Source: a phage
DNA length: 43,091 bases
NCBI GenBank assembly: GCA_021146305.1
Contig: GCA_021146305.1_4336.1
Reading direction: 5' to 3' (one strand)
The translations under genes and the position numbers were made by a program. The notes under the pieces are model-generated. The model was not told the origin of the DNA and did not search any database. It was given only the letters and a program-made list of their open reading frames with translations. Positions 28,116-42,584 of this stretch are shown in pieces; the first letter of the stretch is position 1; each line of letters starts with the position of its first letter.

Positions 28116-28244
28116 ATGACAAAGTTAATAGTTCCACAGCTACGCCGCCAGAAACACGGCGCTGATTTCTTCGCACCGGTAAAGATGAACCGCGCAATGC
28201 GCCGTATGCAGGAAGCCTTAGAACGTGCGGAGAAAAAGAAATGA
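28116..28244 (+). CDS. small basic protein
   Basis: 42 aa (MTKLIVPQLRRQKHGADFFAPVKMNRAMRRMQEALERAEKKK); AAGGA RBS; stop overlaps the ATG of the next gene. Confidence 0.35.
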   Translation: MTKLIVPQLRRQKHGADFFAPVKMNRAMRRMQEALERAEKKK

Positions 28245-30493
28245 ATATTGTTTTTGCAACGCTGCGTAACACATTCGATAAAAACCCTGTAGCGCGTGAA
28301 ATGCCGCTGGAGCAGTTCGTAGAGTATGTCTGCGATACATCGAAGCGTTTATCCGTGGATCCGTCGTGGTCTAAGGAAGAGTACGACGCTGCCAAGATTA
28401 AGCAGAAAGCTATTGCGCCTGTTGGTGGTCGCCGTAAGAACGCTATTCTTGAAGACAGTGTGGTTAAGTTCGACTTTGACCATCTCAACCGTACTCAGTA
28501 CCGCGACCTGACCCGCAAATTCAAGAACGCTCCGTTCTTCAATATTCTGCACACAACGGCGTCGCATCAGCACGCGTGTAAAAACGGTGATTACGCCTTT
28601 CGCGTTCTGGTTCCGGCTCGCACTCCGTTTAACTCTAACGACGCGTGGATGGTGCAACGTGCTATTTGTGCAGAGTTAGAAATAGATGAAGCCTTGCGTG
28701 ACCACTGCACGGAAGACGGCAACCGCCTTATCTATCTGCCACATAGAGAGTCAAAGATAACGGTTACAGAAGGGCGTGTTATCCGTGCCGAGCGGTACAT
28801 CAAGAAAGCCGAAGAGATGGGGTTGAGTAAACGTGAAGTTAAGACACTTGCCGCCGATGAGTATGGGCTTAACGCTGATATAGCGCATTTCTGCGAAGCC
28901 GAGCTTGGCCTTGACGCTTTATCTTCCGGGCGCGGGTACGAAGTCCCATGCCCTAACGAACATCTGCATACAGGCAAAGGCTCCACAAGCATCATGCTTG
29001 ATGGTAAAGAAGTGCGCTTTGTGTGCCAGCATACAAACAACGGCGCTTGCACCGAGCTTAACCGCCGACAGCATTTGGCCCTGCGTATGTGCGGCCTGCC
29101 AGACGAGCTTAACGTAGACAAGCAACCTATCAGTATTAACAGCATTCGTGCGGCTCTGCCTGATTTACCGGATGAAGAGATTGAAGAACTGCACCGCACA
29201 GAGAACGAGGAGCCTGTAACTTGCACGCTGGAAGACCTTGAAGAAGAGGACGAGTTACCAGAACCGGTAAAGGCTGATTTCGTCGTAGAAGGGTACATGC
29301 CGTCGGATTGTATCTGGGATATTGTCGGGGAATCCGGCACGTACAAATCATTCTATACGCTGGGGATGATGTACCTGAGCGCCACCGGGTACCGGTTTGC
29401 GGGGGCTGACACCCAACGTTGCCACCATTTCTATATTGACGGCGAGGGTGGTGCAGCTACACGAACACGTATTGATGCACTCGCGGCTAAATATGGCGAG
29501 GAAGGTAAAGATTATGTACATGTCATCGATATGGGCGAAATACTCGCTACGCATGGTGATAAAAAAATTCCAGCTCTAATCCGCAGGATGCGCGAAACCG
29601 CAGGGGATGAACCTATTGGCATGGTTGCCTTCGACACCCTTAACCAGACGCTGGCCCTGACGATTGATAAGTTCGACGAGAACAGTTCATCAACGGCAAT
29701 CGGTATGGGTAAAGTTATCGCCATCCTGAAAGAAGTGCGCGATGCAACTAAAGCCGCTGTCGGTGTCGTTCACCATACTCCGAAGGGCGGAAAGAAAGCC
29801 CGCGGCAGTGGAGCATTGTATGCGGGTGTCGACGTGGAACTGACAATCGAACGCGCTACCGACCGTCAGATAAACGTATACCACTCTAAATTTAAGCACG
29901 GTCCGCAACAGAAGACGGTTGGCATGGTACTGGAGTCTGTACAGTTCCGTGAAGCACCGCCGCCGAAAGAGTACCGCGCGGTTGAGTTCCTCGGTAGCAC
30001 AGAGGAATACGGCACAATAGTAAACCTTGACCTGCCTGAGCCGCACAAGGCGCTTGTATTGATGCCGTGGGGTTTCGAGCCGTTCAAAACTGACGAGGAG
30101 AAAGAGCGGGAAGAAGGGTTGACGAAAGAAGGTAAAGAAAATGTACGTAAAACCGTAGAGAACGCCGTCAACAGTTCGGAGGCCACGATACTCGCGGCGT
30201 TTGAACTGGCGGAAGGAACCTACAACGGCAACGAAGGCATCACGGTATCCGCAGCGAATAAGCTCGCGCAGTCTGGCCCCAACGCAAAGGCGTTTAACTC
30301 CAAAGAAGCCATAGAACGCGGGAAGATTAAGAAAATGGTTGAGGCTGGGTATCTTGTTCCGGGTACTGACGAAAACAATCAGATAATCCCAGGCCGTTAC
30401 AGACTGAACACCATGATAACAGATAACAAGATTCCGAAGACAATATACGAACCGAATGAAATGCTGACAGTGACCGAGGAGGATTTGGAATGA
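28241..30493 (+). CDS. replication protein: primase-like N-terminal region + RecA/DnaB-type P-loop ATPase
   Basis: 750 aa; Cys/His cluster (CPNEHLH...C..H...C) suggesting a zinc-binding primase-like domain; central Walker A GESGTYKS; acidic C-terminal region. Confidence 0.55.
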   Translation: MNIVFATLRNTFDKNPVAREMPLEQFVEYVCDTSKRLSVDPSWSKEEYDAAKIKQKAIAPVGGRRKNAILEDSVVKFDFDHLNRTQYRDLTRKFKNAPFFNILHTTASHQHACKNGDYAFRVLVPARTPFNSNDAWMVQRAICAELEIDEALRDHCTEDGNRLIYLPHRESKITVTEGRVIRAERYIKKAEEMGLSKREVKTLAADEYGLNADIAHFCEAELGLDALSSGRGYEVPCPNEHLHTGKGSTSIMLDGKEVRFVCQHTNNGACTELNRRQHLALRMCGLPDELNVDKQPISINSIRAALPDLPDEEIEELHRTENEEPVTCTLEDLEEEDELPEPVKADFVVEGYMPSDCIWDIVGESGTYKSFYTLGMMYLSATGYRFAGADTQRCHHFYIDGEGGAATRTRIDALAAKYGEEGKDYVHVIDMGEILATHGDKKIPALIRRMRETAGDEPIGMVAFDTLNQTLALTIDKFDENSSSTAIGMGKVIAILKEVRDATKAAVGVVHHTPKGGKKARGSGALYAGVDVELTIERATDRQINVYHSKFKHGPQQKTVGMVLESVQFREAPPPKEYRAVEFLGSTEEYGTIVNLDLPEPHKALVLMPWGFEPFKTDEEKEREEGLTKEGKENVRKTVENAVNSSEATILAAFELAEGTYNGNEGITVSAANKLAQSGPNAKAFNSKEAIERGKIKKMVEAGYLVPGTDENNQIIPGRYRLNTMITDNKIPKTIYEPNEMLTVTEEDLE

Positions 30494-31950: not shown

Positions 31951-32223
31951 ATGATTTACCAACTCTACCGCGCCGTAGACAGGCGGGATAACACAGAGGC
32001 GTTGTGGCTGTTGCGTGCGCCGTCCGGTGCGCACCAGATGGAAGAGATGGCGTACTTAGGCAAAGTACCGCGTCCTAAAGATATAGGTCGTCACGTGTCG
32101 CGGATTAAACGCACGACATTCGCCAAGCCCGACTTTTATGTCTTCGAGTCGATGTATGGATGGGCCTTACATTGCGACCACAAGACACGGCATTTAATTG
32201 ACCAGTGGGAGAACAGAGCATGA
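31951..32223 (+). CDS. hypothetical protein
   Basis: 90 aa; GGAGGGG RBS. Confidence 0.45.
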   Translation: MIYQLYRAVDRRDNTEALWLLRAPSGAHQMEEMAYLGKVPRPKDIGRHVSRIKRTTFAKPDFYVFESMYGWALHCDHKTRHLIDQWENRA

Positions 32224-33461
32224 TTCTAAAAGAACGAGGCGGCAATAATGATGTACACGCCTTACTGTCACCGTCAGGCGCTAAAAAGTGGCTGTCATGC
32301 GCTGCGTCGCTGGCGTGTGAAAAAGATATCCCTAACACGTCGGGTAAAGCCGCGGTATTAGGAACCGCCATGCACACCATAGCTGAGGTCCATCTCAACG
32401 CCTATATACGCGGCACTGCGTTGCCGTTGGAGCGTGAAGTCGGCGCTTACGTACTGGATGAAGGCAAAGGTCAGATTAAGGCGCTAATCAGCCCGATGAA
32501 AGGCGCGGTACTGATTACGGCGGACATGATTGAGCAGGTGCGCAAGTACACCGACTACTGCAAAGCGATTATAGACGTAGCGACTTACGCCAAGCTGGAA
32601 ATGCGTGTCAATCTTACTGAGGTATTGCATCCGGGGTATGAAGGCGTTGAGACGTTCGGAACCGCTGACCTCGTTGCTGTCCAGGAACTGGCAAACACCG
32701 ACGAGCACATGCTCATTATCGGCGACCTGAAAACCGGGCGGCATCGCGTCGAAGCGAAAGAAAACAAGCAGCTTATGCTTTACGCGCTCGGTGTTTATCG
32801 TCGACTCAAGAGACGTTATAACATAACAACCGTTCGTCTGGTCATCTTCCAGCCTTACGCTGGGGGTGCGACAGAGTGGGGCATCTCGGTTGAAGGACTG
32901 GAACTGTTCGCTAAGTTCGCACAGAAACGCGCGCTGTTAGCGCTTGATGCGTATTTCCGTGGCAAGAAGAACCTGAAAGCGTCGGACTTCAAGCCGTCGG
33001 TAGATGGTTGTCAGTGGTGCCGGTTCTCTGAACAATGCGCTGCGCGTACAAAGACGGTTAATTCTGTACTGGCGGAAGAACTGGAAGACGACTTTGTGCT
33101 GGAACTGACGCCGGAGCAACTCGTAGCTGAGTATGAGAAGTTGCCGCTGTTGCGCCAGCACATCGACAAGGTTGAGAAAGCTATGGCGGCCGCGTTGCAT
33201 TCAGGTAAGAAAGTTCCTGGTTACAAGTTGGTTGAGGGCCGCCCGGGCAATCGTGCGTGGAAAGACGCAGAGAAAGTGGCTGGCAAGTATGGCATAGCGC
33301 TAATGAAGCAAGTGCTCATGACGCCAACCGAAGCGGCTAAAGTCATACCGGAAGATGAACTGAAAGACTTCATTACCCGTAAGCCAGGCGCACCATGTGT
33401 TGCAACGGCAGACGACAAACGTCCTGAGTGGAATAGGGTAACAGAGGAGGATTTAGAATGA
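32205..33461 (+). CDS. RecB-family (Cas4-like) exonuclease with Fe-S cysteine cluster
   Basis: 418 aa; PD-(D/E)xK signature (DLVAV ... EHMLIIGDLKTG) and Cys pattern C-x2-C-x5-C (CQWCRFSEQC) plus an N-terminal Cys, as in Cas4/AddB-type nucleases. Confidence 0.65.
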   Translation: MGEQSMILKERGGNNDVHALLSPSGAKKWLSCAASLACEKDIPNTSGKAAVLGTAMHTIAEVHLNAYIRGTALPLEREVGAYVLDEGKGQIKALISPMKGAVLITADMIEQVRKYTDYCKAIIDVATYAKLEMRVNLTEVLHPGYEGVETFGTADLVAVQELANTDEHMLIIGDLKTGRHRVEAKENKQLMLYALGVYRRLKRRYNITTVRLVIFQPYAGGATEWGISVEGLELFAKFAQKRALLALDAYFRGKKNLKASDFKPSVDGCQWCRFSEQCAARTKTVNSVLAEELEDDFVLELTPEQLVAEYEKLPLLRQHIDKVEKAMAAALHSGKKVPGYKLVEGRPGNRAWKDAEKVAGKYGIALMKQVLMTPTEAAKVIPEDELKDFITRKPGAPCVATADDKRPEWNRVTEEDLE

Positions 33462-33661
33462 TTCAAGTAAATGAAATGCCCACAGATAAAGATTTTGTGA
33501 TGATATGGCGCTGGGGCGGTTATATCCATTCGGAATCGTTTACGTTCCTGAACGGCACGATGGAGCGATACAACCATGTGGAGGATGAATTCGAACCCGT
33601 TGATATGAATGATTTCGAGAACATAGTCCGTATTGCGAAATTTTATTTGACACCTGAATAG
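33458..33661 (+). CDS. hypothetical acidic protein
   Basis: 67 aa; ATGA coupling to the exonuclease gene. Confidence 0.4.
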   Translation: MIQVNEMPTDKDFVMIWRWGGYIHSESFTFLNGTMERYNHVEDEFEPVDMNDFENIVRIAKFYLTPE

Positions 33662-33675
33662 TTAGCTATTATAGT
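33647..33675 (+). promoter_or_regulatory. sigma70-like promoter with operator palindrome
   Basis: TTGACA (33647-33652), 17-bp spacer, TATAGT (33670-33675); palindrome GAATAG-ttag-CTATTA (33656-33671); same architecture as the promoter at 31098-31126. Confidence 0.55.
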
Positions 33676-33742
33676 TCTAATCACTGGCCGGGCAGTTCCC
33701 GGAGTAAACTTTGAAATATAAACTGAAAAGCGAGAAATCAAG

Positions 33743-34369
33743 ATGGGTATTAAACTGAATCTGCGTAAAGTAAACACTGCTTGGGTTAACGTATTCGAAC
33801 GCGAAAAAGACCGTGAAAACGATGATGGCTCAATCACTAAAGGTCAGTACAGCGCAACCATTATCCTGCCGTCCGACCATGCTCAAATCGATGCGCTCTA
33901 CGACACTGTTTACGCTGTAGTTGAAGAAGCGTTGGGTGCTGCCGCTGCCGAGAAATGGATGAAGTCCAACTACGGCGAAGGTAAGCACATGGATAAATGC
34001 GCGATTAAAGACATTGCCGAGCGCGACAATCCATTTGAAGACTTCCCGGAGGGCTTCTACTTCAAAGCGAAGGCACAGAAGCAGCCGCTGATTGTAACCT
34101 CTAAAAAAGGTGAGACTCAGGTAGAACAGGACTTCAATGTAGACGGTGAACAGATTGAAGGTGAACAGGTTTACAGCGGCTGCGTCGCTAACGTAAGCGT
34201 TGAAATCTGGTTCAGCCAGAAATACAAAGTCCTCGGCGTTAACCTGCTGGCGATTAAATACGTTGGCGAAGGCAAAGCGTTCGGCGGTTCTAAAGTCGCT
34301 GCGAGCGTCAATGACCTGGAAGACGACGAAGAAGATGAAGCACCGCGCCGCGAACGTCGCCGCCGCTAA
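33743..34369 (+). CDS. single-stranded DNA-binding protein-like (tentative)
   Basis: 208 aa with acidic C-terminal tail (DLEDDEEDEAPRRERRRR); directly upstream of the DNA polymerase gene; assignment by analogy only. Confidence 0.4.
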   Translation: MGIKLNLRKVNTAWVNVFEREKDRENDDGSITKGQYSATIILPSDHAQIDALYDTVYAVVEEALGAAAAEKWMKSNYGEGKHMDKCAIKDIAERDNPFEDFPEGFYFKAKAQKQPLIVTSKKGETQVEQDFNVDGEQIEGEQVYSGCVANVSVEIWFSQKYKVLGVNLLAIKYVGEGKAFGGSKVAASVNDLEDDEEDEAPRRERRRR

Positions 34370-34388
34370 TATCTGAACCGATTTAACT

Positions 34389-34410
34389 AAGGCCCTTCAT
34401 TGGGCCTTTT
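34389..34410 (+). terminator. intrinsic terminator
   Basis: AAGGCCC-ttcatt-GGGCCTT hairpin followed by TTTTT. Confidence 0.75.
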
Positions 34411-34430
34411 TACTAAGGGTCGAAAATACC

Positions 34431-36614
34431 ATGCCAGAATTACTCTACTTAGACTTTGAAACCTACAGCGACATCGATTTAAAGAAAGTCGGTTCCTACG
34501 CTTACGCCGAACACCCGTCAACCGAAGTGCTTATCTGCACATATGCTTTTGATGACGAGCCTGTACAGGTATGGGATTGCACCGACGGCAGCGACATGCC
34601 GGGCGATTTGCACCGCGCGTTGCGTCGTCGGGTCAAACCCAACAGCCGTACCAAGATGGTGTGGCACAACGGCTCAATGTTCGACCGCCTCATCATGAAG
34701 AATTGCTGGGGCTTTGATATTCCGGTAAGCAACACCATTGATACGATGATTTGGGCGTTTCGCCACGCGCTGCCGGGTTCACTTGACGCATTGTGCGAAG
34801 TGCTTGGCGTGTCCGCCGACAACGCGAAAGACAAACGAGGCAAGGCGCTGATTCAGCGTTTCTCTAAACCGACGCCGAAGAACTACAAAATCCGCCGCTA
34901 CACCGCAGAAACTCACCCTGACGAGTGGGCGATGTTCATCAGGTACGCCGTGAGCGACATCACTGCGATGCGTGAAGTCTTCCATAAGCTGCCGCGTTGG
35001 GGTAACTCCGAGTTCGAAGACCGTGTACTGGAACTTGACCAGTTAATCAACGACCGCGGATTTAAGGTTGACGTCGCACTGGCGGAAGCCGCGATTGAAG
35101 CCGTAGAGAAGCACAAGGCACAGTTACAGGAAGAAGCTCAACGTAAATACGGCGGCTCGCTTACCGGTAAAGACTTCCTTCCGATTCTGCGTGAACTTGC
35201 GCCCGCGCACCGCATACACAATGCACAGAAGTCGACGCTTAACGACCTGTTGGCAGATGATGATTTACCGGACGACGCCCGGATGATTATCGAAATGCGC
35301 CTCGGGGCCGCGTCAACAGCGTCCACGAAATATAACCCGCTGCTGTTAGGCCGCTCGTCGGACGACCGACGCCGCGGTTGTATCCAGTACGGTGGGGCAA
35401 AGCGTACGTTACGGTTCGCGGGTAAAGGCTTCCAGCCACAGAACCTGGCGCGTGGGTACTATCACGATGATGAACTGGATAAAGGCATTTCAGCGTTACT
35501 TAAGGGCCGGGCGCACCGCCGATTTGACGTAGCCAAGCTGACGGCATCTACCGTTCGTAGCTGCATTATACCGGAAGCTGGGCATAAGTTTGTCGTCGCC
35601 GATTACTCTAACGTTGAGGGTCGCGGGCTTGCGTGGCTGGCAGGCGAAGAAACCGCGCTAGATACGTTCCGCGCCGGACTGGATATTTACTGCGTAACAG
35701 CAGGTAAGATGTTTGGCATGGAGCCGGATTACATTAAGAAAGAACGTAAAGACTTACGCCAGATTGGTAAAGCCTGCGAATTGGGCCTCGGATACGCGGG
35801 CGGTGTCGGTGCTTTCGTTCAGTTCGCTAAAAACCTCGGCCTTGACCTGGTTGATATGGCTAAAACAATGGACGGTACTTTCCCGGACCATATATGGGCC
35901 GCTACTGCACGCGGATATGAATGGGCGCGTATTCAGGAAGCAAAGCGACCGCCGCATCCGGGTGAAAAGGATGACCGACCATCATATATTCTTGATAAGA
36001 AAGTGTGGCGCACCTGTGACGCTATCAAGCGCATGTGGCGCGAGTCCCACCCGGAAACAGTAGCGTTCTGGCGGGATATTGAAGACGCCGCTATGGCAGC
36101 TATCCGCAATCCAGGTAAAGAGTTCACTGCGGGACCGCGGGGTGTTAAGTTTTCGCGTAACGTAGAAACGGACAACAACGGCAACAAAGTCGCTGGTTGG
36201 TGGTTGCGCATGACGTTGCCGTCGGGTCGCGTTATGTCTTATCCGGGCGTCGGGTTGAGCGTGTCGAAAGAAACAGATGGAGACGGGAAGGTGTCTACTA
36301 ACGTGCGCATAAAGTACCAGGGCGAAAACCAGTTAACCAGGCAGTGGGGCTTCCAGTACACCTACTCTGGTAAACTGGTGGAAAACTGTACTCAGGCGCT
36401 GTGCCGTGATTTGCTGGCTAACGCCCTGCTGAACGTAGAAGCAAACGGATACCCGATTGTGCTTCACGTACACGATGAGATTATCTGCGAGACACCAGAT
36501 TTACCAGAATACAATGTTGCAGAGCTTGAGCGGTTGATGTGCGAATTACCGGAATGGGCTGAGGGGTTCCCTCTTGTAGCAGAAGGTGCGGAGATGAAGC
36601 GTTATGCTAAGTAA
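34431..36614 (+). CDS. family A DNA polymerase with 3'-5' exonuclease domain
   Basis: 727 aa; Exo I-like YLDFETYSD; polymerase motif A VVADYSNVEGR, motif B RQIGKACELGLGYAGG, motif C HVHDEI. Confidence 0.85.
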   Translation: MPELLYLDFETYSDIDLKKVGSYAYAEHPSTEVLICTYAFDDEPVQVWDCTDGSDMPGDLHRALRRRVKPNSRTKMVWHNGSMFDRLIMKNCWGFDIPVSNTIDTMIWAFRHALPGSLDALCEVLGVSADNAKDKRGKALIQRFSKPTPKNYKIRRYTAETHPDEWAMFIRYAVSDITAMREVFHKLPRWGNSEFEDRVLELDQLINDRGFKVDVALAEAAIEAVEKHKAQLQEEAQRKYGGSLTGKDFLPILRELAPAHRIHNAQKSTLNDLLADDDLPDDARMIIEMRLGAASTASTKYNPLLLGRSSDDRRRGCIQYGGAKRTLRFAGKGFQPQNLARGYYHDDELDKGISALLKGRAHRRFDVAKLTASTVRSCIIPEAGHKFVVADYSNVEGRGLAWLAGEETALDTFRAGLDIYCVTAGKMFGMEPDYIKKERKDLRQIGKACELGLGYAGGVGAFVQFAKNLGLDLVDMAKTMDGTFPDHIWAATARGYEWARIQEAKRPPHPGEKDDRPSYILDKKVWRTCDAIKRMWRESHPETVAFWRDIEDAAMAAIRNPGKEFTAGPRGVKFSRNVETDNNGNKVAGWWLRMTLPSGRVMSYPGVGLSVSKETDGDGKVSTNVRIKYQGENQLTRQWGFQYTYSGKLVENCTQALCRDLLANALLNVEANGYPIVLHVHDEIICETPDLPEYNVAELERLMCELPEWAEGFPLVAEGAEMKRYAK

Positions 36615-36735
36615 ACTGATTATCGCGGTACTGGCGGGATTCGCCGCCGGTGTCTATTGTCACGAGGGCCAATACGGCATGATGGTCGCCGTATTGGGTA
36701 TGTTAGTAGCAATTTATCTGTGGGTGCTGGAATGA
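36604..36735 (+). CDS. micro-peptide, hydrophobic
   Basis: 43 aa (MLSKLIIAVLAGFAAGVYCHEGQYGMMVAVLGMLVAIYLWVLE); overlaps the polymerase stop. Confidence 0.3.
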   Translation: MLSKLIIAVLAGFAAGVYCHEGQYGMMVAVLGMLVAIYLWVLE

Positions 36736-36821
36736 AAATTTACTGGTTATACGAAGAAGACTGCCGAATCTGTCCGCGCTGCGGGATTGAGCATACGAAA
36801 CGTGAGGGGTGTGTATTATGA
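36732..36821 (+). CDS. micro-peptide with CxxC motifs
   Basis: 29 aa (MKIYWLYEEDCRICPRCGIEHTKREGCVL); ATGA coupling. Confidence 0.3.
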   Translation: MKIYWLYEEDCRICPRCGIEHTKREGCVL

Positions 36822-36967
36822 CAATGTTTGTATTTAGGACCATAGTAACCATGCTCGCACTGTTACTCGGCGCGGGAATAGCTGCGATGTTCTGTTACGG
36901 CCTGTTCTTTAAGTTTGTTGGCGTTGCCGTTCTCGGAGGAGCGTTTATAACCTGGGTTCTGCGCTCA
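36818..36967 (+). CDS. micro-peptide, membrane
   Basis: 49 aa, two hydrophobic segments; ATGA coupling on both sides. Confidence 0.35.
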
Positions 36968-37251
36968 TGACCCCGGAAGGCAAGATTCAGAAATACGCAA
37001 AAGAGCAATTCGAGGCCATTGGCGGCCTCGTTCGTAAACTTTCGTACGAGGGGCGCTCCGGCGCCCCTGACCTGCTGGTAATTCTCCCCGGCGGCATCGT
37101 CTGGTTCGTCGAGGTTAAGAAAGACGAAAACACGAAGCCAGACACGCACCAGTTACGTGAGCATGAGCGGATGCGTAAACGCGGTGCAAATGTTTTTGTC
37201 GTTGGTTCGTTCAAACAGGTTGACGACCTAATAGCGAACTATTATAGTTAA
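36967..37251 (+). CDS. VRR-NUC domain nuclease
   Basis: 94 aa; PD-(D/E)xK core GAPDLLVILPGG...VEVKK typical of VRR-NUC. Confidence 0.6.
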   Translation: MTPEGKIQKYAKEQFEAIGGLVRKLSYEGRSGAPDLLVILPGGIVWFVEVKKDENTKPDTHQLREHERMRKRGANVFVVGSFKQVDDLIANYYS

Positions 37252-37281
37252 TCACACACCAACAATATAAGGAATTGAGAA

Positions 37282-37473
37282 ATGAAACACGAATATGACC
37301 GTAAACCAGCACGTGACATCGTACCGGGTGACATGATTTTCAACGTTAAGACCCGCCAGCCTGTTGCCGTTGATACTGTGTTCGTCGAGTCAAACGGTAA
37401 ACTGGTTATCGAAGATGTAACTGGTAACGTTACGGCGTTCGGGCGTAAAGAGCTGGTGCTGGTGGCAAAATGA
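37282..37473 (+). CDS. hypothetical protein
   Basis: 63 aa; AGGAA RBS. Confidence 0.45.
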   Translation: MKHEYDRKPARDIVPGDMIFNVKTRQPVAVDTVFVESNGKLVIEDVTGNVTAFGRKELVLVAK

Positions 37474-38153
37474 TTGTCTGGTCATTGTTTGACGGTTCGG
37501 GCCTTATGGCCCAACCGTGGGCAGAAGCGGGCCATACTTGCTATTGTTTCAACTACGACGGTGCCGACCACGGCGACTACGCGCGATTGGGCGCAAAAGT
37601 TGAACACGAGAACATCCACTATATAAACGCGTGGATTGATAATAAGTTCGACTTCGAGGTTTCGCCAGATATTATTTTTGCGTTCCCTCCTTGCACAGAT
37701 TTAGCCGTTAGTGGTGCGGCGCATTTCGAAACGAAGCGTAAGAAGAACCCAACGTTTCAGGTAGAGGCTGTTATCACATGCAAAGTGGCGGCACGCCTGG
37801 CTAAAAGGTATAACGTACCTTATATGATTGAGAACCCAGTTAGCGTCCTCTCGTCTTTGTGGCGTAAGCCCGATTATGTGTTCAATCCTTACGAATACGG
37901 CGGCTATCTACCGGAAGACGATACGCATCCAATGTTCCCTGAATACATAAAACCCCGAGACGCGTACCCTAAAAAGACATGTCTTTGGACGGGTAATGGT
38001 TTCGTAATGCCGGTTAAGTCAGGTGTTGCCGTGGGTGATGGGTATTCTGACCGGCACAACAAACTTGGTGGTAAATCAGTGCGGACAAAAACAATCCGCA
38101 GCCTTACTCCTCGGGGTTTCGCAAAAGCAGTTTACGAGGCTAATCATGTCTAA
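37470..38153 (+). CDS. compact DNA (cytosine-5)-methyltransferase-like protein
   Basis: 227 aa; motif I LFDGSG, motif IV FAFPPC (candidate catalytic Cys), motif VI ENP; shorter than typical C5-MTases with no obvious target-recognition domain. Confidence 0.5.
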   Translation: MIVWSLFDGSGLMAQPWAEAGHTCYCFNYDGADHGDYARLGAKVEHENIHYINAWIDNKFDFEVSPDIIFAFPPCTDLAVSGAAHFETKRKKNPTFQVEAVITCKVAARLAKRYNVPYMIENPVSVLSSLWRKPDYVFNPYEYGGYLPEDDTHPMFPEYIKPRDAYPKKTCLWTGNGFVMPVKSGVAVGDGYSDRHNKLGGKSVRTKTIRSLTPRGFAKAVYEANHV

Positions 38154-39570
38154 GTTTCAAAGGCGCGAATATCAGAAGCTCATGACTTCGTTCATGCTAC
38201 AGCATCCGCGCTGTAATATCTGGTGCGGCATGGGAGGGGGCAAAACCTCCTCAACTATGTGGGTGCTTAATCGCCTGTTTCGCAACGGGCAGCTTACAGA
38301 AGATGACCGCGTGTTAATCCTCGCCCCGTTACGTGTTGCGTCCGGTACGTGGCCCGCTGAACAAGAGAAATGGCAATTCCCTTGTCTGCGTGTCGTAGAT
38401 GCAACTGGTTCGGAGAAGCGCCGCATCGCAGCGCTGGAGTCAGATGCTAACGTGGTGTGCACTAACTACGAAGTTATCGAGTGGCTAATTGACTACTACG
38501 GCAAAGACGACTGGCCTTTTACGGTTATCGTTGCCGATGAAAGCACGAAGCTTAAATCGTTCCGCAGCCGTTCGGGTGGTAGCAAGCGGGCAAAGGCGCT
38601 CAGCAAGGTTGCGTTCGGAAAGGTTAAGCGTTTCATCAACCTGACAGGCACACCGTCACCAAACGGCCTCAAAGACTTGTGGGGTCAGAACTGGTTTATC
38701 GACGCTGGCGAGCGCCTCGGCTCTTCGTACACAGCATTCACCGACCGCTGGTTTAACTCGGTACAGAAAGGTAAATCGGCCATGGCCCGCGAGTATCATG
38801 CACGACCGGGTGCGGATAATGAGATTCATCAGAAGATGAAAGACATCAGCCTGACCATAGACCCTGCCGAGTGGTTTGGTTGTGAAGCGCCTGTTATCGT
38901 ACCGGTGGAAATAGACCTGCCGAAGAAAGCGCGTCAGGCGTACATAGATATGGAGGAGAAGTTATTCGCAGAACTGGAGAGCGGGGAAGTTGAAGCGGCT
39001 AACGCTGCGGCGAAGACCTCAAAGTGCTTGCAGATTGCATCTGGTGCTGTATATGTATCCGGGCCAGACGGCGAAGCAACCAAAGAATGGGAGAAAGTGC
39101 ACGACACGAAACTGGATGCGCTCGAGTCGATTGTTGAGGAGTTGCAGGGTGCGCCGTTGCTGGTAGCCTATCAGTTTAAACACGAACTGGAGCGTATCCT
39201 TAAGCGATTCCCACAGGCACAGGCGTTCGCCAAAGGCGCTAGGGGGAACAAGCAGATGGAAGCGTGGAACCGTGGGGAAATCGAGATTTTATGCGTGCAT
39301 CCTGCGTCAGCCGGGCATGGTTTGAATTTACAGGACGGGGGTCATCATCTGGCGTTCGTCTCGCAAGGCTGGAACCTTGAGCACTATTTGCAGGTTGTTG
39401 AGCGCATAGGCCCAGTCCGCCAGAAACAGGCGGGTCACGAGCGCCCGGTGTTCCTTTATCACATCGTTGCTAAAGACACTCTGGACGAGGTTGTCGCCGC
39501 GCGTACCGACGAGAAGAAATCGGTACAGGAAGAGTTGCTTAATTACATGAAGAGACGAGGTAAGAAATGA
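38146..39570 (+). CDS. SNF2-family (DEAD-like) helicase
   Basis: 474 aa from ATG 38146 (GAGG RBS); Walker A GMGGGKT, DEST box, LTGTP motif; the track ORF starts upstream at 38023 in the same frame. Confidence 0.75.
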   Translation: MSKFQRREYQKLMTSFMLQHPRCNIWCGMGGGKTSSTMWVLNRLFRNGQLTEDDRVLILAPLRVASGTWPAEQEKWQFPCLRVVDATGSEKRRIAALESDANVVCTNYEVIEWLIDYYGKDDWPFTVIVADESTKLKSFRSRSGGSKRAKALSKVAFGKVKRFINLTGTPSPNGLKDLWGQNWFIDAGERLGSSYTAFTDRWFNSVQKGKSAMAREYHARPGADNEIHQKMKDISLTIDPAEWFGCEAPVIVPVEIDLPKKARQAYIDMEEKLFAELESGEVEAANAAAKTSKCLQIASGAVYVSGPDGEATKEWEKVHDTKLDALESIVEELQGAPLLVAYQFKHELERILKRFPQAQAFAKGARGNKQMEAWNRGEIEILCVHPASAGHGLNLQDGGHHLAFVSQGWNLEHYLQVVERIGPVRQKQAGHERPVFLYHIVAKDTLDEVVAARTDEKKSVQEELLNYMKRRGKK

Positions 39571-40082
39571 TGGATTTCGAAGAGTTTCTACTTAAAGCTC
39601 ATCTGCTGGCGCGTGGGTTTGACGCTGACCGTCTCCAGGTAGTCTTAGCCCCTGGAGTAGCTACGTTTTACCTGTGGGGGTTTGACGGTAGGCTTCGCGG
39701 ATACCAGCATTACAAACCACATGCCGAAAAGAACTGTAAAAACCCTAAAGACGCGCGGTACTTTACCAGAACAACAAGGCCGTGTTTATGGGGGCTTGAG
39801 TATTTGCCGGAAAGCGGGGTGGTATTTGTTACCGAAAGCATATTCAAAGCCGTAGCCTTGATGAATTGCGGGTTCAATGCTGTAAGCGCACTGGGGTCAA
39901 ATATATCAACAGACCTACGGCAGCAAATGTCACTTTTGCCGTATGACTGGGTGTGCGCTGGCGACAATGATAAAGCTGGATTAAAGTTCAGCAAAACATT
40001 CACCAGAGGATTTGTATCTAACGACCTTGATGAACTTTGTGAAGAAGAAATAACGTATCTTGCGAGGAAATTTACCAGATGA
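39567..40082 (+). CDS. TOPRIM-domain (DnaG-like) primase protein
   Basis: 171 aa; acidic TOPRIM-like motifs VFVTES and CAGDNDKAG. Confidence 0.5.
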   Translation: MMDFEEFLLKAHLLARGFDADRLQVVLAPGVATFYLWGFDGRLRGYQHYKPHAEKNCKNPKDARYFTRTTRPCLWGLEYLPESGVVFVTESIFKAVALMNCGFNAVSALGSNISTDLRQQMSLLPYDWVCAGDNDKAGLKFSKTFTRGFVSNDLDELCEEEITYLARKFTR

Positions 40083-40216: not shown

Positions 40217-40247
40217 AGAAAAGGCCCCGTTTGGGGCCTTAGTTTAT
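40217..40247. terminator. bidirectional intrinsic terminator
   Basis: AAGGCCCC-gttt-GGGGCCTT (40221-40240) then T-rich tract; separates the rightward replication operon from the convergent tailspike gene. Confidence 0.85.
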
Positions 40248-42584
40248 TTAACTGTTTGTCAGGGTAGCCACTAATGTCTCAAGCGCTATAATCCTTTTCT
40301 CTAACTGAGCTGCTTTACGTCGCTGTAACGCAGCCTCTAATATCAATACCTCATCATAACGAATACCATACCGCTCCCCTGCCGCCGTAGCTTTTGTTAA
40401 TACTTCCCCAGATTCCTCATCAATAATTTCCGGAGACGCTTCCCACTTATCGTAGCACAGGAAACCGTACTTAGTCGCGTCCAACCCGTGCCGGGTAAAC
40501 GCCTCAATTGCTCGTTGGGCTACTACTCCAAAGTGCCACCTAGCTGCATCCTCCCCCTTCTCTGCAACCCTATCCAGGTACTTATATTGAACTAAATTAA
40601 CTTCAGCCCAAGCGTCTAACATAGCGTCAGTTAATTCCAGGGGTAGTGTCTTGGCTCTCTCGTCAGACGTAACCGTAAACGCTGTTTGAGTGAATCCGCC
40701 GGACAAAGCTCTACTTGCCGACCCGATAGCGACGGTGTTTGCACTGGATGGTGTAATAGCCGTCGGGGCTATTTGAATATACGCCGATGCGTCAGAGGCT
40801 AAGCGTAAATAACCATTAACCAGAGAAATAGTTCGAGAAGTACCATCAGATGTGAGTAATTTTATCTGAGAGGTCGTACCTCCACCAATAGCCAAAGATG
40901 TAGCCCCGTCGGAAATTAGTCTGAATTTATCAGCTGTCACAAAAGGCAATGCAGAAGTATTTATATACTTAGTGAACCACTCAAACCTACCGGACATGGA
41001 CCCTATGTATTGTCCTATAGCGGGGGCGTGTACCACGTTACTGGTGGTAGTACCATCAATGCTAGAGACTCCGGTTATAGTAGATCGTGAACTAAGAAGA
41101 CTGTTCTTGGGTCCAGGGTGCTTTACTTCCACAAAGTTACGGGTAGTCCCTGTCTCTAGTGTAACAACCCCGGAAGCACTATACATAGGGAAAACCGATG
41201 CGTAGTTATTACTAGCTCCGTCTAAAAACCTAATAGAAGTCGCGGTTTGCGTTTGCCCTAAACTATTAGTTCCGCTGCACCCAACCATTAGAATATTATC
41301 AGCGGCATTATAGTTGCCTTGTAATGTAACGCCGTGTGCTTGCGTGGCCTCGGAGGAGGAGTAATCAGCTACAACATTTGTCACCAGATTACCTGAACCC
41401 TCGCCGGCGACCACAGCGGCATACTTAGCGTTATTAGCAACAACATTACTGATAATATTACTGCTAGGGGCATTGGTCGTCTCGGTGCCATTATAAACAA
41501 CGTGCTGACAGCTTTGCCCAATGACGCCACTAACAACATTACATTTAGCATCTGTTTTCAACTCAACCGCCCCGAATTGGGGGTAGTTTCGGGCGATAAC
41601 ATCGTTGATTATAGTATTACTTGCGGACTCAAACAGCACGCACCCCGCTTTTTTATTTGTAGCATACCCGGAGTAGTCACCCCGTATGCCGCTTACAATG
41701 TATCCAGACGGACCCCCATCGCTAGGGTATGCTACTAAACTAAATCCAGTTCCCTTTGCATTTTTAAAATCAATACCTTTAATAGTAACGTCCTGCCCAC
41801 CGGCGAAGGAAACCTGCTGACCCTGTGTGAAGTCCGTTGCCTTATTTCCTACAATACTCAGGGTGCTAAGTAGCCCTCCTGCAGGTTTATCAAAGATTAA
41901 GTGGTTTCCAGAATCGTTTGATTGTTTTAAAACCCCACCCCCTGTTCCGAATAGAGAGCATGTCGGGTGGGAGAGTAGCGACGTACTATACTCCCCTTGC
42001 GGTACAAGCACCCCGTTACTAGCTGTAAGCGCTCGGTTAAGGGCGTTTGTGTAATCAGGGTCAGTACCTAAATAGAAGTCCAGAACGGAAACTACTTCTC
42101 TATTTTTATCGTGTTGCGTCCTGCCGACAGCGTCGGTAAATGGTTGTCGGACGCCGACCATGGCATCACCTAATGTCGCATTGTCTGTGCTGGATAAATC
42201 ATTGCGCAAATCCGGGTCAGTCTGCGGCTTCCAGTTAGCGTCACCAACCGGGTTAAACGATGCGGGGACAACAACCGGCAGAGTCCCGGTATACGAGTAC
42301 CACGTCTTGCTTACAGGGTCATACACCACTTTGTCGCGGTCATTAGCGGTTAACGTACCACCAGTGGAAAAGTCCCATGACACCGGAGAAAAACCAGCGT
42401 CACGCAACACGGCTGGTAACGTCTTTTGGGTCTGCCCTGTAACGGCATTTGTCGCGTAATCAATATCGGCGCCACCTGCAATACCTCCAGATTTGCCAGT
42501 GATAACCTCGGCTTCGAAAATCTGGTGTTTCTTGGCGGTTTGTAAATCCGCCAGGCTTAAAACGTCACCGCATCCGCTTGACAT
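40248..42584 (-). CDS. tailspike / depolymerase-type receptor-binding protein with C-terminal intramolecular chaperone
   Basis: 778 aa; strong AGAGGA RBS; Gly/Asn/Thr/Ser-rich central region; C-terminal ~139 aa begins TSDERAK (S codon 40665-40667), the signature of the peptidase S74 auto-cleaving chaperone domain. Confidence 0.75.
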   Translation of the reverse strand: MSSGCGDVLSLADLQTAKKHQIFEAEVITGKSGGIAGGADIDYATNAVTGQTQKTLPAVLRDAGFSPVSWDFSTGGTLTANDRDKVVYDPVSKTWYSYTGTLPVVVPASFNPVGDANWKPQTDPDLRNDLSSTDNATLGDAMVGVRQPFTDAVGRTQHDKNREVVSVLDFYLGTDPDYTNALNRALTASNGVLVPQGEYSTSLLSHPTCSLFGTGGGVLKQSNDSGNHLIFDKPAGGLLSTLSIVGNKATDFTQGQQVSFAGGQDVTIKGIDFKNAKGTGFSLVAYPSDGGPSGYIVSGIRGDYSGYATNKKAGCVLFESASNTIINDVIARNYPQFGAVELKTDAKCNVVSGVIGQSCQHVVYNGTETTNAPSSNIISNVVANNAKYAAVVAGEGSGNLVTNVVADYSSSEATQAHGVTLQGNYNAADNILMVGCSGTNSLGQTQTATSIRFLDGASNNYASVFPMYSASGVVTLETGTTRNFVEVKHPGPKNSLLSSRSTITGVSSIDGTTTSNVVHAPAIGQYIGSMSGRFEWFTKYINTSALPFVTADKFRLISDGATSLAIGGGTTSQIKLLTSDGTSRTISLVNGYLRLASDASAYIQIAPTAITPSSANTVAIGSASRALSGGFTQTAFTVTSDERAKTLPLELTDAMLDAWAEVNLVQYKYLDRVAEKGEDAARWHFGVVAQRAIEAFTRHGLDATKYGFLCYDKWEASPEIIDEESGEVLTKATAAGERYGIRYDEVLILEAALQRRKAAQLEKRIIALETLVATLTNS

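Follow-up and report, generated by a model that had tools for sequence, protein, structure and literature searches.

Two primase genes of unrelated superfamilies in the replication block of a Kagunavirus-like coliphage

INTRODUCTION

The PrimPol-PV1 primases of mobile elements combine an archaeo-eukaryotic primase (AEP) domain, a Zn-binding/PriCT module, a RepA/DnaB-type ATPase, and a C-terminal winged helix (PMC5862659), and a RepA-like helicase fused to an AEP domain occurs in gp43 of corynephage BFK20 (PMC4889955). The same 2016 survey (Kazlauskas et al., PMC4889955) gives double-stranded DNA viruses either an AEP or a DnaG homolog, with Rhodothermus phage RM378 as the sole exception. Here we describe a 43,091-nucleotide (nt) stretch of phage DNA (NCBI GenBank assembly GCA_021146305.1, contig GCA_021146305.1_4336.1), referred to in full length as the window, in which a gene for a 750-amino-acid (aa) primase-helicase and a gene for a 171-aa TOPRIM protein stand at opposite ends of one replication block, both on the + strand and 9 kb apart. 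The window is that of a Kagunavirus-like Escherichia coli siphophage of the subfamily Guernseyvirinae. The two genes represent two unrelated primase superfamilies, and the explanation of the locus as a whole that we regard as probable is a self-contained AEP primase-helicase accompanied by a separate, unrelated accessory mini-primase core.

RESULTS

Domain architecture of the large protein

A first-pass annotation of the window had listed two separate primase-like genes, and both open reading frames (ORFs) were found exactly as it gave them. Its description of the large product, a zinc-cluster primase-like N-terminal half followed by a RecA/DnaB P-loop with the Walker A motif GESGTYKS, was also borne out, since the Cys/His cluster was conserved, the motif was found at aa 363 to 370, and Pfam AAA_25 matched at aa 328 to 517 with 75.6 bits against a cut-off of 27. 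AAA_25 was the sole Pfam match of this protein. The PHROG 3228 family, "replicative helicase-primase," matched the 750 aa from end to end with 1,026.8 bits. The following features were assigned.

28241..30493, + strand: 750-aa primase-helicase ORF (AEP, Zn cluster, RepA/DnaB-like helicase, and C-terminal region); PHROG 3228 and the namesake coding sequence of Escherichia phage vB_EcoM_SHAK7858
28241..28840, + strand: predicted AEP (prim-pol) catalytic domain, aa ~1-200; structure searches and conserved residues; landmarks are motif I VKFDFD (D78, D80), the motif II region HTTASH (aa 104-109), FRVLVP (R121), motif III D154, and NRLIYLPH (aa 161-168)
28913..29065, + strand: putative Zn-binding domain, aa ~225-275; conservation and model
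29222..29920, + strand: RepA/DnaB-type helicase domain (superfamily 4 [SF4], RecA fold), aa ~328-560; Pfam AAA_25, profile search, and conserved residues
29327..29350, + strand: Walker A GESGTYKS, aa 363-370; sequence
29921..30490, + strand: C-terminal region, aa 561-750, ending in the acidic tail ...TEEDLE; conservation

A homolog search with the whole large protein returned only relatives of at least 84% identity, so a library of representative proteins was used for the N-terminal domain. Only 15 relatives of the N-terminal 330 aa were present among 1.84 billion representative proteins, and an alignment of 12 relatives (24 to 71% identity) was the basis both of the conservation analysis and of an AlphaFold model (predicted local distance difference test [pLDDT], 85.6; predicted template modeling score [pTM], 0.62). 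These 330 aa had no Pfam, NCBIfam, or PDB sequence match; in Pfam, neither an AEP nor a PriCT model was matched by the domain, apart from a match of one relative to BT4734-like_N with an E value of 0.016. Single-sequence searches of the PDB with the large and small proteins, and a PDB search with the N-terminal-domain profile, gave nothing meaningful. The AEP fold, with its catalytic core resembling an RNA recognition motif (RRM), was recovered by two independent structure searches. Because the top Foldseek ranks for the model were S-2L PrimPol (E value, 8.5e-5) and RepB' (E value, 3.4e-3), the first ~200 residues are predicted to adopt an AEP fold.

The acidic metal ligands of AEP motif I (hhhDhD) and motif III (hD) were present in this domain. 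Residues D78 and D80 (VVKFDFD) were invariant, as was D154, which was matched to motif III by position rather than by structural superposition, in 12 to 13 sequences down to 24% identity. In addition to these three residues, R64, T106, R121, C237, P238, H243, T249, E257, F260, C262, and H264 were invariant in the 12-relative alignment, and K114 and C270 were nearly so. The AEP domain of the large protein would carry out primer synthesis.

The Cys/His cluster follows the AEP domain and has the layout C237-P-N-x3-H243 ... F260-x-C262-x-H264 ... C270 ("CPNEHLH...FVCQH.....C," aa 237 to 270). Its Cys and His residues and P238 were conserved down to 24% identity. Short strands (232 to 234, 249 to 252, and 259 to 262) followed by helices were seen in the model of this region, which is compatible with a zinc ribbon-like module, and the conservation of the cluster suggests that it binds Zn. 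No NCBIfam family matched the segment. The order of AEP domain, Zn-binding module, and P-loop helicase is that of the PrimPol-PV1-type architecture.

Assignment of the helicase domain to SF4 was based on the above-threshold AAA_25 profile together with the Walker A Lys (K369), the catalytic Glu (E402, in DGEGG with D400), the Walker B Asp (D465, in AFDTL), and the Arg finger (R521, in RGSGAL); a further motif, VVHHTPK, contains H512 and K515. In the family alignment, K369, D400, E402, D465, H512, and K515 were invariant and R521 was nearly invariant. A search of PDB sequences with the family profile gave the hexameric RSF1010 RepA helicase (1G8Y) as its only match, with an E value of 0.012.

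The C-terminal 190 aa had no match to a Pfam or NCBIfam family. By analogy with PrimPol-PV1 (PMC5862659), aa 561 to 750 are possibly a winged-helix/DNA-binding module. The acidic tail was kept in more than 120 close relatives and, in other forms, in distant ones (DDDLKD, NADLED, and DDLEDLA). In the window, this TEEDLE tail is encoded at 30470 to 30490, and the single-stranded-DNA-binding protein (SSB) encoded downstream ends (34300 to 34366) in NDLEDDEEDEAPRRERRRR, comprising an acidic NDLEDDEEDE with a similar DLE core and then a basic tail. Acidic tails are common to T7 gp4 and gp2.5, and the acidic stretches of the primase-helicase and SSB may possibly be shared polymerase-docking motifs as in T7.

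The small protein as a DnaG-type RNA-polymerase domain

The second primase-like gene was assigned as follows.

39567..40082, + strand: predicted 171-aa stand-alone DnaG/T7 gp4-type RNA-polymerase domain, comprising an N-subdomain (aa 1-83) and TOPRIM (aa 84-171; E90 in ESIFK, D133-N-D135-KAG, D153-L-D-E); Pfam, PHROG, AlphaFold model, and Foldseek

Domain searches proposed in the first-pass annotation gave AAA_25 and, in the small protein, Toprim_2 (23.1 bits; cut-off, 22.1) above their cut-offs, whereas PriCT had no Pfam match. The earlier description of the small protein as carrying only TOPRIM motifs was thus correct as to TOPRIM but incomplete, as an N-subdomain was also detected. The PHROG 849 family, "DNA primase," matched with an E value of 2.7e-48 but only in the middle of its profile (positions 149 to 333 of 435). 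With an AlphaFold model of high confidence (pLDDT, 94.5), the best Foldseek match was the T7 gp4 primase fragment 1NUI (E value, 1.3e-6; TM score, 0.65; ~185 columns), followed by 1Q57, 1DDE, 1EQN, and 2AU3; the best matches thus comprised full gp4 as well as DnaG catalytic cores from Aquifex, E. coli, S. aureus, and M. tuberculosis. RNase M5, a pure TOPRIM protein, was a much weaker match (E value, 0.016; ~93 columns). Because the primase matches span essentially the whole protein and that of RNase M5 covers only about 93 columns, the 171-aa protein, as modeled, is a complete DnaG-type RNA-polymerase domain and not TOPRIM alone.

The remaining parts of a DnaG-type primase were absent. The sequence opens directly with the N-subdomain and contains no Cys/His cluster, and hence no CHC2/Cys4 zinc-binding domain (ZBD); it stops ~20 aa past the last TOPRIM motif, with no helicase-binding domain or helicase fusion. 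The TIGR01391 dnaG equivalog model scored 14.7 bits against a cut-off of 283.6. A profile search yielded a family of 50 members, all of which were 146 to 190 aa long or fragments and none of which was fused to another domain. In 24 members, the most distant of them at 26% identity, G41, G45, Y49, Y65, G76, D133, D135, A137, G138, and D153 were invariant, and E90 and T67 were nearly invariant. Alignment by hhalign to the canonical T5 primase paired E90 with EGIFD, D133-x-D135 with DNDASG, and D153 with DPGD. The DnaG-type signature of a TOPRIM Glu, DxD, a downstream Asp, and the N-subdomain was present. The ratio dN/dS for the gene was 0.03 to 0.04 in comparison with phage phiEc4 and 0.10 in comparison with Jerseyvirus jersey, indicating that it is under strong purifying selection. 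The acidic metal site is kept apart from an Asp-to-Lys change described below, and the protein would be expected to be functional where it is present.

In several Kagunavirus-type contigs and records, including PQ474795.1, the TOPRIM gene was called as fragments of 87 to 125 aa or matched in three pieces, and PHROGs contains separate 68-aa and 92-aa "DNA primase" fragment families. Frameshifts, gene decay, or sequencing errors could account for the fragments.

Distribution of the two genes

Co-occurrence of the two genes was compared across a set of representative genomes. The same replication module was found in Dhillonvirus SSL-2009a, Edwardsiella phage eiAU, and Klebsiella phage VLCpiS11a (Guernseyvirinae), with AEP-Zn-helicase homologs that were 29 to 39% identical in the N-terminal domain and 38 to 40% identical in the helicase; tblastn detected no TOPRIM homolog in any of these three phages. 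A TOPRIM protein 98% identical to that of the window was present at the same position in phiEc4, and one 91% identical was present in Jerseyvirus jersey, in both cases alongside an AEP module without the Cys/His cluster. Among closely related Kenyan Jerseyviruses, a "TOPRIM primase" has been reported in only two (PMC10783031).

The small gene was also found well outside this group. T5 encodes a 172-aa homolog (AAX12008; 48% identity over 166 aa) in its tRNA gene region (AY587007, 37201 to 37719), far from the replication cluster, and in addition a canonical primase of 296 aa (AAX12049) that contains both a CHC2 finger and TOPRIM and whose gene adjoins a DnaB-like gene and the polymerase gene. 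In Vibrio phage F100, a tRNA nucleotidyltransferase gene is overlapped at its end by the small homolog; these neighbors may be fortuitous or may point to an RNA-related role. Further homologs were found in an N4-like Acinetobacter phage, Vibrio and Proteus phages, Erwinia jumbo phages, and T5-like phages, and in T5-like, Schitoviridae, and jumbo phages the small protein was present without the large one. On metagenomic contigs, the gene was surrounded by small early genes for hypothetical proteins, with Lar-like, GmrSD_N-like, and acetyltransferase genes close by. As the distribution across relatives decouples the two genes, these results indicated that the AEP-helicase is the conserved core primosome and that the TOPRIM gene is mobile and accessory and does not depend on the Zn cluster.

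The N-terminal predicted AEP module (window 28241 to 29270, aa 1 to 343) was observed to be exchanged as a cassette between phages. From aa 343 onward, the phiEc4 helicase-primase has 99% identity to that of the window, while its first ~350 aa form a different AEP module (LDFDS, TTASH, and FRVVMP) with 25% identity around motifs I and II; Jerseyvirus jersey also carries this second module type. One representative protein had a window-type N-terminal module (69% identical) fused to a different P-loop domain (AAPNAGKT).

Alternative explanations

Several observations weigh against a self-contained AEP primase-helicase beside an accessory mini-primase core. The motif II His varies, with TTASH (H108) in the window and TTTGD or STPGD in relatives; PrimPol-PV1 families, too, are documented to have lost it (PMC5862659). 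Only 12 sequences underlie the AlphaFold model of the N-terminal domain. The Walker A motif is deviant in that the residue preceding Lys is Tyr and not the canonical Gly, so that NTPase activity of the helicase is assumed rather than certain; GESGTYKS was fixed in 121 close relatives, and distant homologs had GESNIGKS or GKSGAGKS. In the small protein, the Kagunavirus/T5 subgroup has ESIFK, with Lys at the Asp position of EGxxD (distant members have EGxxD), and T7-type primase domains without a ZBD are known to lack template-directed primer synthesis; for these two reasons, the small protein may be no primase when alone. Literature searches found no biochemical study of either protein or any close homolog, and likewise no work on what the small TOPRIM family or the primase-helicase of Kagunavirus does.

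The first-pass annotation had read the two genes as one set of primase functions split between them, and in its most specific form this would be a split T7 gp4-like primase in which the TOPRIM protein receives its template-recognizing ZBD in trans, from the Cys/His module of the large protein. The small protein indeed has no ZBD and yet has the T7 gp4 RNA-polymerase domain as its best match, the pattern CPNxxxH...(S/T)...FxCxH is similar to a DnaG-type CHC2 finger such as that of T5 ("CLNPDHDDKHPSL...HCLSCG"), and in the T7 hexamer a ZBD can serve the catalytic domain of a neighboring subunit. However, phiEc4 and jersey combine TOPRIM genes 98% and 91% identical to that of the window with AEP modules devoid of the cluster, SSL-2009a, eiAU, and VLCpiS11a keep the cluster without a TOPRIM homolog, and T5-like, Schitoviridae, and jumbo phages do without the large protein altogether. 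As each gene occurs without the partner features of the other, interdependence is disfavored, and the placement of a Zn module in cis, immediately behind an AEP domain, is moreover known (PMC5862659). The AEP domain (RRM-like fold, DxD plus D) is unrelated to TOPRIM/DnaG, so that a split primase was not supported. The Zn cluster as the missing zinc finger of the TOPRIM protein was rejected on gene distribution, and we consider a split primase very improbable. Nor is the arrangement unusual within the phage group, contrary to the first-pass annotation: the large gene matched 142 records, and both genes are labeled in GenBank.

A different possibility is that the small protein is no primase in vivo but a nuclease/RNA-processing, counter-defense, or host-takeover factor with a primase fold. 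Its patchy, mobile distribution over unrelated phage families with a primase of their own is consistent with such a role, as are the neighborhoods of the T5, F100, and metagenomic copies, the absence of a ZBD, the Lys in the Kagunavirus/T5 subgroup, and the existence of TOPRIM nucleases, RNase M5 being a weaker structural match. The full length of the protein, including the DnaG-specific N-subdomain, nevertheless fits primase cores far better than it fits RNase M5; the DnaG-like signature of that subdomain (G41, G45, Y49, and Y65, with T67 nearly invariant) is kept; PADLOC showed nothing past generic TOPRIM similarity; and the neighborhood evidence is weak and heterogeneous. A nonprimase role appears unlikely but is a genuine alternative. 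Conversely, the N-terminal domain of the large protein could be an AEP-like module that has no catalytic activity and acts in origin binding or loading, leaving the TOPRIM protein as the sole active primase. The domain is unrecognized by Pfam, its motif II His is not conserved, and Rep-type origin-binding domains (pMV158 RepB and the papillomavirus E1 DNA-binding domain) were among the weaker fold matches. Against this, the three metal-binding acidic residues and R121 and K114 show little or no variation down to 24% identity, the best fold matches are active prim-pols and RepB', and sister phages replicate with the large protein and no TOPRIM gene; a dead AEP domain is in our estimation the least probable of these alternatives.

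The phage and its replication block

The large ORF was 98.2% identical at the nucleotide level to that of phage SHAK7858, in which the large gene is labeled "replicative helicase-primase" and the small gene "DNA primase" in GenBank, and the window was 98% identical to published phages in which both primase genes carry annotation. The 142 phage records mentioned above were obtained by megablast with the large gene. Between and beyond the two primase genes, the following features were identified by Pfam and PHROG matches unless noted otherwise.

32205..39570, + strand: rest of the replication block; synteny with SHAK7858, SSL-2009a, eiAU, and VLCpiS11a in addition
32205..33461, + strand: DUF2800/Cas4-like exonuclease
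33743..34369, + strand: Gp2.5/Enc34-type SSB
34431..36614, + strand: family A DNA polymerase
37470..38153, + strand: DNA methyltransferase
38023..39570, + strand: SNF2-type helicase ORF; true start probably later
40221..40240, no strand assigned: G+C-rich hairpin AAGGCCCC-GTTT-GGGGCCTT with a T-rich tail, 3' of the replication block; consensus scan only
40248..42584, - strand: tail spike; TSP1/Gp66-like adaptor at the N terminus and Peptidase_S74 (endosialidase-chaperone) domain at the C terminus

The start of the TOPRIM gene overlaps the stop codon of the SNF2 helicase gene (ATGA). The 227-aa methyltransferase ORF overlaps the 5' end of the called SNF2 ORF (GTG at 38023), and the helicase start is therefore probably near 38146, as in SHAK7858 (1,425-nt coding sequence). 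The methyltransferase gene is itself an indel between 98%-identical phages, as SHAK7858 has none at the same place. Within the polymerase, Pfam DNA_pol_A covered only aa 372 to 472, and PHROG 93, "endonuclease," matched aa 446 to 539; ORF length varied among relatives (727 aa here and 1,032 aa in Jersey), and the sequence around aa ~446 to 539 may represent an inserted domain or a variable region. The hairpin and its T tract, closing the replication block before the convergent tail spike gene, are likely to form a terminator. Overall, the promoter/terminator consensus scan did not perform better than on shuffled sequence (17 promoter-like matches versus 15.6 expected and 17 terminator-like matches versus 17.1). 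The tail spike gene was the most variable gene in comparison with SHAK7858, in which the tail fiber gene is 1,986 nt long versus 2,337 nt here.

DISCUSSION

The family A polymerase, Gp2.5-type SSB, and primase-helicase would together form a T7-style replisome. In this replisome, the 750-aa protein would be a T7 gp4-like primosome in which the AEP and Zn modules replace the ZBD and TOPRIM modules. Its RepA/DnaB-type helicase, presumably as a hexameric ring on the lagging strand, would unwind the fork, while the tethered AEP domain, with D78, D80, and D154 as metal ligands and the Zn module in cis, would prime the lagging strand. The acidic C-terminal tail would probably dock onto the family A polymerase, as in T7 gp4. 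The 171-aa protein would most likely be an auxiliary nucleotidyltransferase or primase whose template engagement is partner dependent or of low specificity; without a ZBD, it would be expected to lack sequence-specific template recognition. A broader proposal, which we put forward tentatively and hold to be rather unlikely, is that the ~170-aa ZBD-less DnaG-like proteins are a widespread mobile accessory family with a role other than routine lagging-strand priming, e.g., specialized repriming, priming in which a partner takes the place of the zinc finger, or counter-defense or host takeover.

Both genes were already annotated in public records, and the architecture of the large protein is a described type. 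For annotation, the N-terminal half of the Guernseyvirinae/Dhillonvirus "helicase-primase," to which Pfam is blind, can now be named as a predicted AEP domain plus Zn module with its candidate catalytic residues, and the small "DNA primase" can be described as an optional ZBD-less DnaG-type core that is not the primase of the phage. Furthermore, the results point to a conserved, strongly selected mini-primase family that includes the T5 gene and whose function is a worthwhile question. The system is easy to test, with E. coli and Salmonella as hosts and with natural isolates that either have or lack the TOPRIM gene.

Coexistence of AEP and DnaG-type genes in these coliphages and Salmonella phages, which are well sampled as a group, makes Kagunavirus and Jerseyvirus phages further exceptions to the AEP-or-DnaG rule of PMC4889955, and the combination is commoner than that survey reports. 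Divergence of the AEP domain from standard profiles may explain why these phages were missed in 2016. RM378, as reported in PMC4889955, resembles the window phage in having both primase superfamilies in one genome.

For the small protein, T5 AAX12008 is a true homolog of the same length with the same ESxFKA, GDNDxAG, and D-x-D-E motifs, and T5 likewise has this extra primase-like gene beside a complete primase (AAX12049); the T5 copy lies in the tRNA region, whereas the window copy is at the end of the replication operon. The T7 gp4 fragment 1NUI shares the N-subdomain and TOPRIM (Glu, DxD, and Asp) over the whole 171 aa. In T7 gp4, however, this domain is covalently joined to a Cys4 ZBD and a helicase, whereas the window protein is free-standing, 14 to 16% identical, and has Lys for Asp; gp4B is the natural ZBD-less form of T7 gp4. 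The bifunctional gp4 layout of ZBD, TOPRIM, and SF4 helicase is absent from the window, in which the helicase is fused to an AEP domain and TOPRIM is encoded 9 kb away. The wider likeness to T7 lies in the Gp2.5-type SSB, the family A polymerase, and the acidic-tailed helicase.

For the large protein, the RSF1010 RepB' primase (3H20/3H25) and RepA helicase (1G8Y) are separate proteins, whereas their counterparts are fused in the window phage, and RepB' has a helix bundle where the window protein has the Cys/His cluster after the AEP domain. Unlike PrimPol-PV1, the large protein matches no Pfam AEP or PriCT model, has a narrow N-terminal-domain family, and has the Walker A motif GESGTYKS, and the two are likened here by architecture and not by sequence clustering. 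In that architecture, PrimPol-PV1 proteins (e.g., PrimQH; Kazlauskas et al. 2018, PMC5862659) and BFK20 gp43 have the same domain order as the large protein, and PrimPol-PV1 shares with it the variable motif II His, the conserved acidic residues of motifs I and III, and the character of a replicative primase-helicase of phages and mobile elements.

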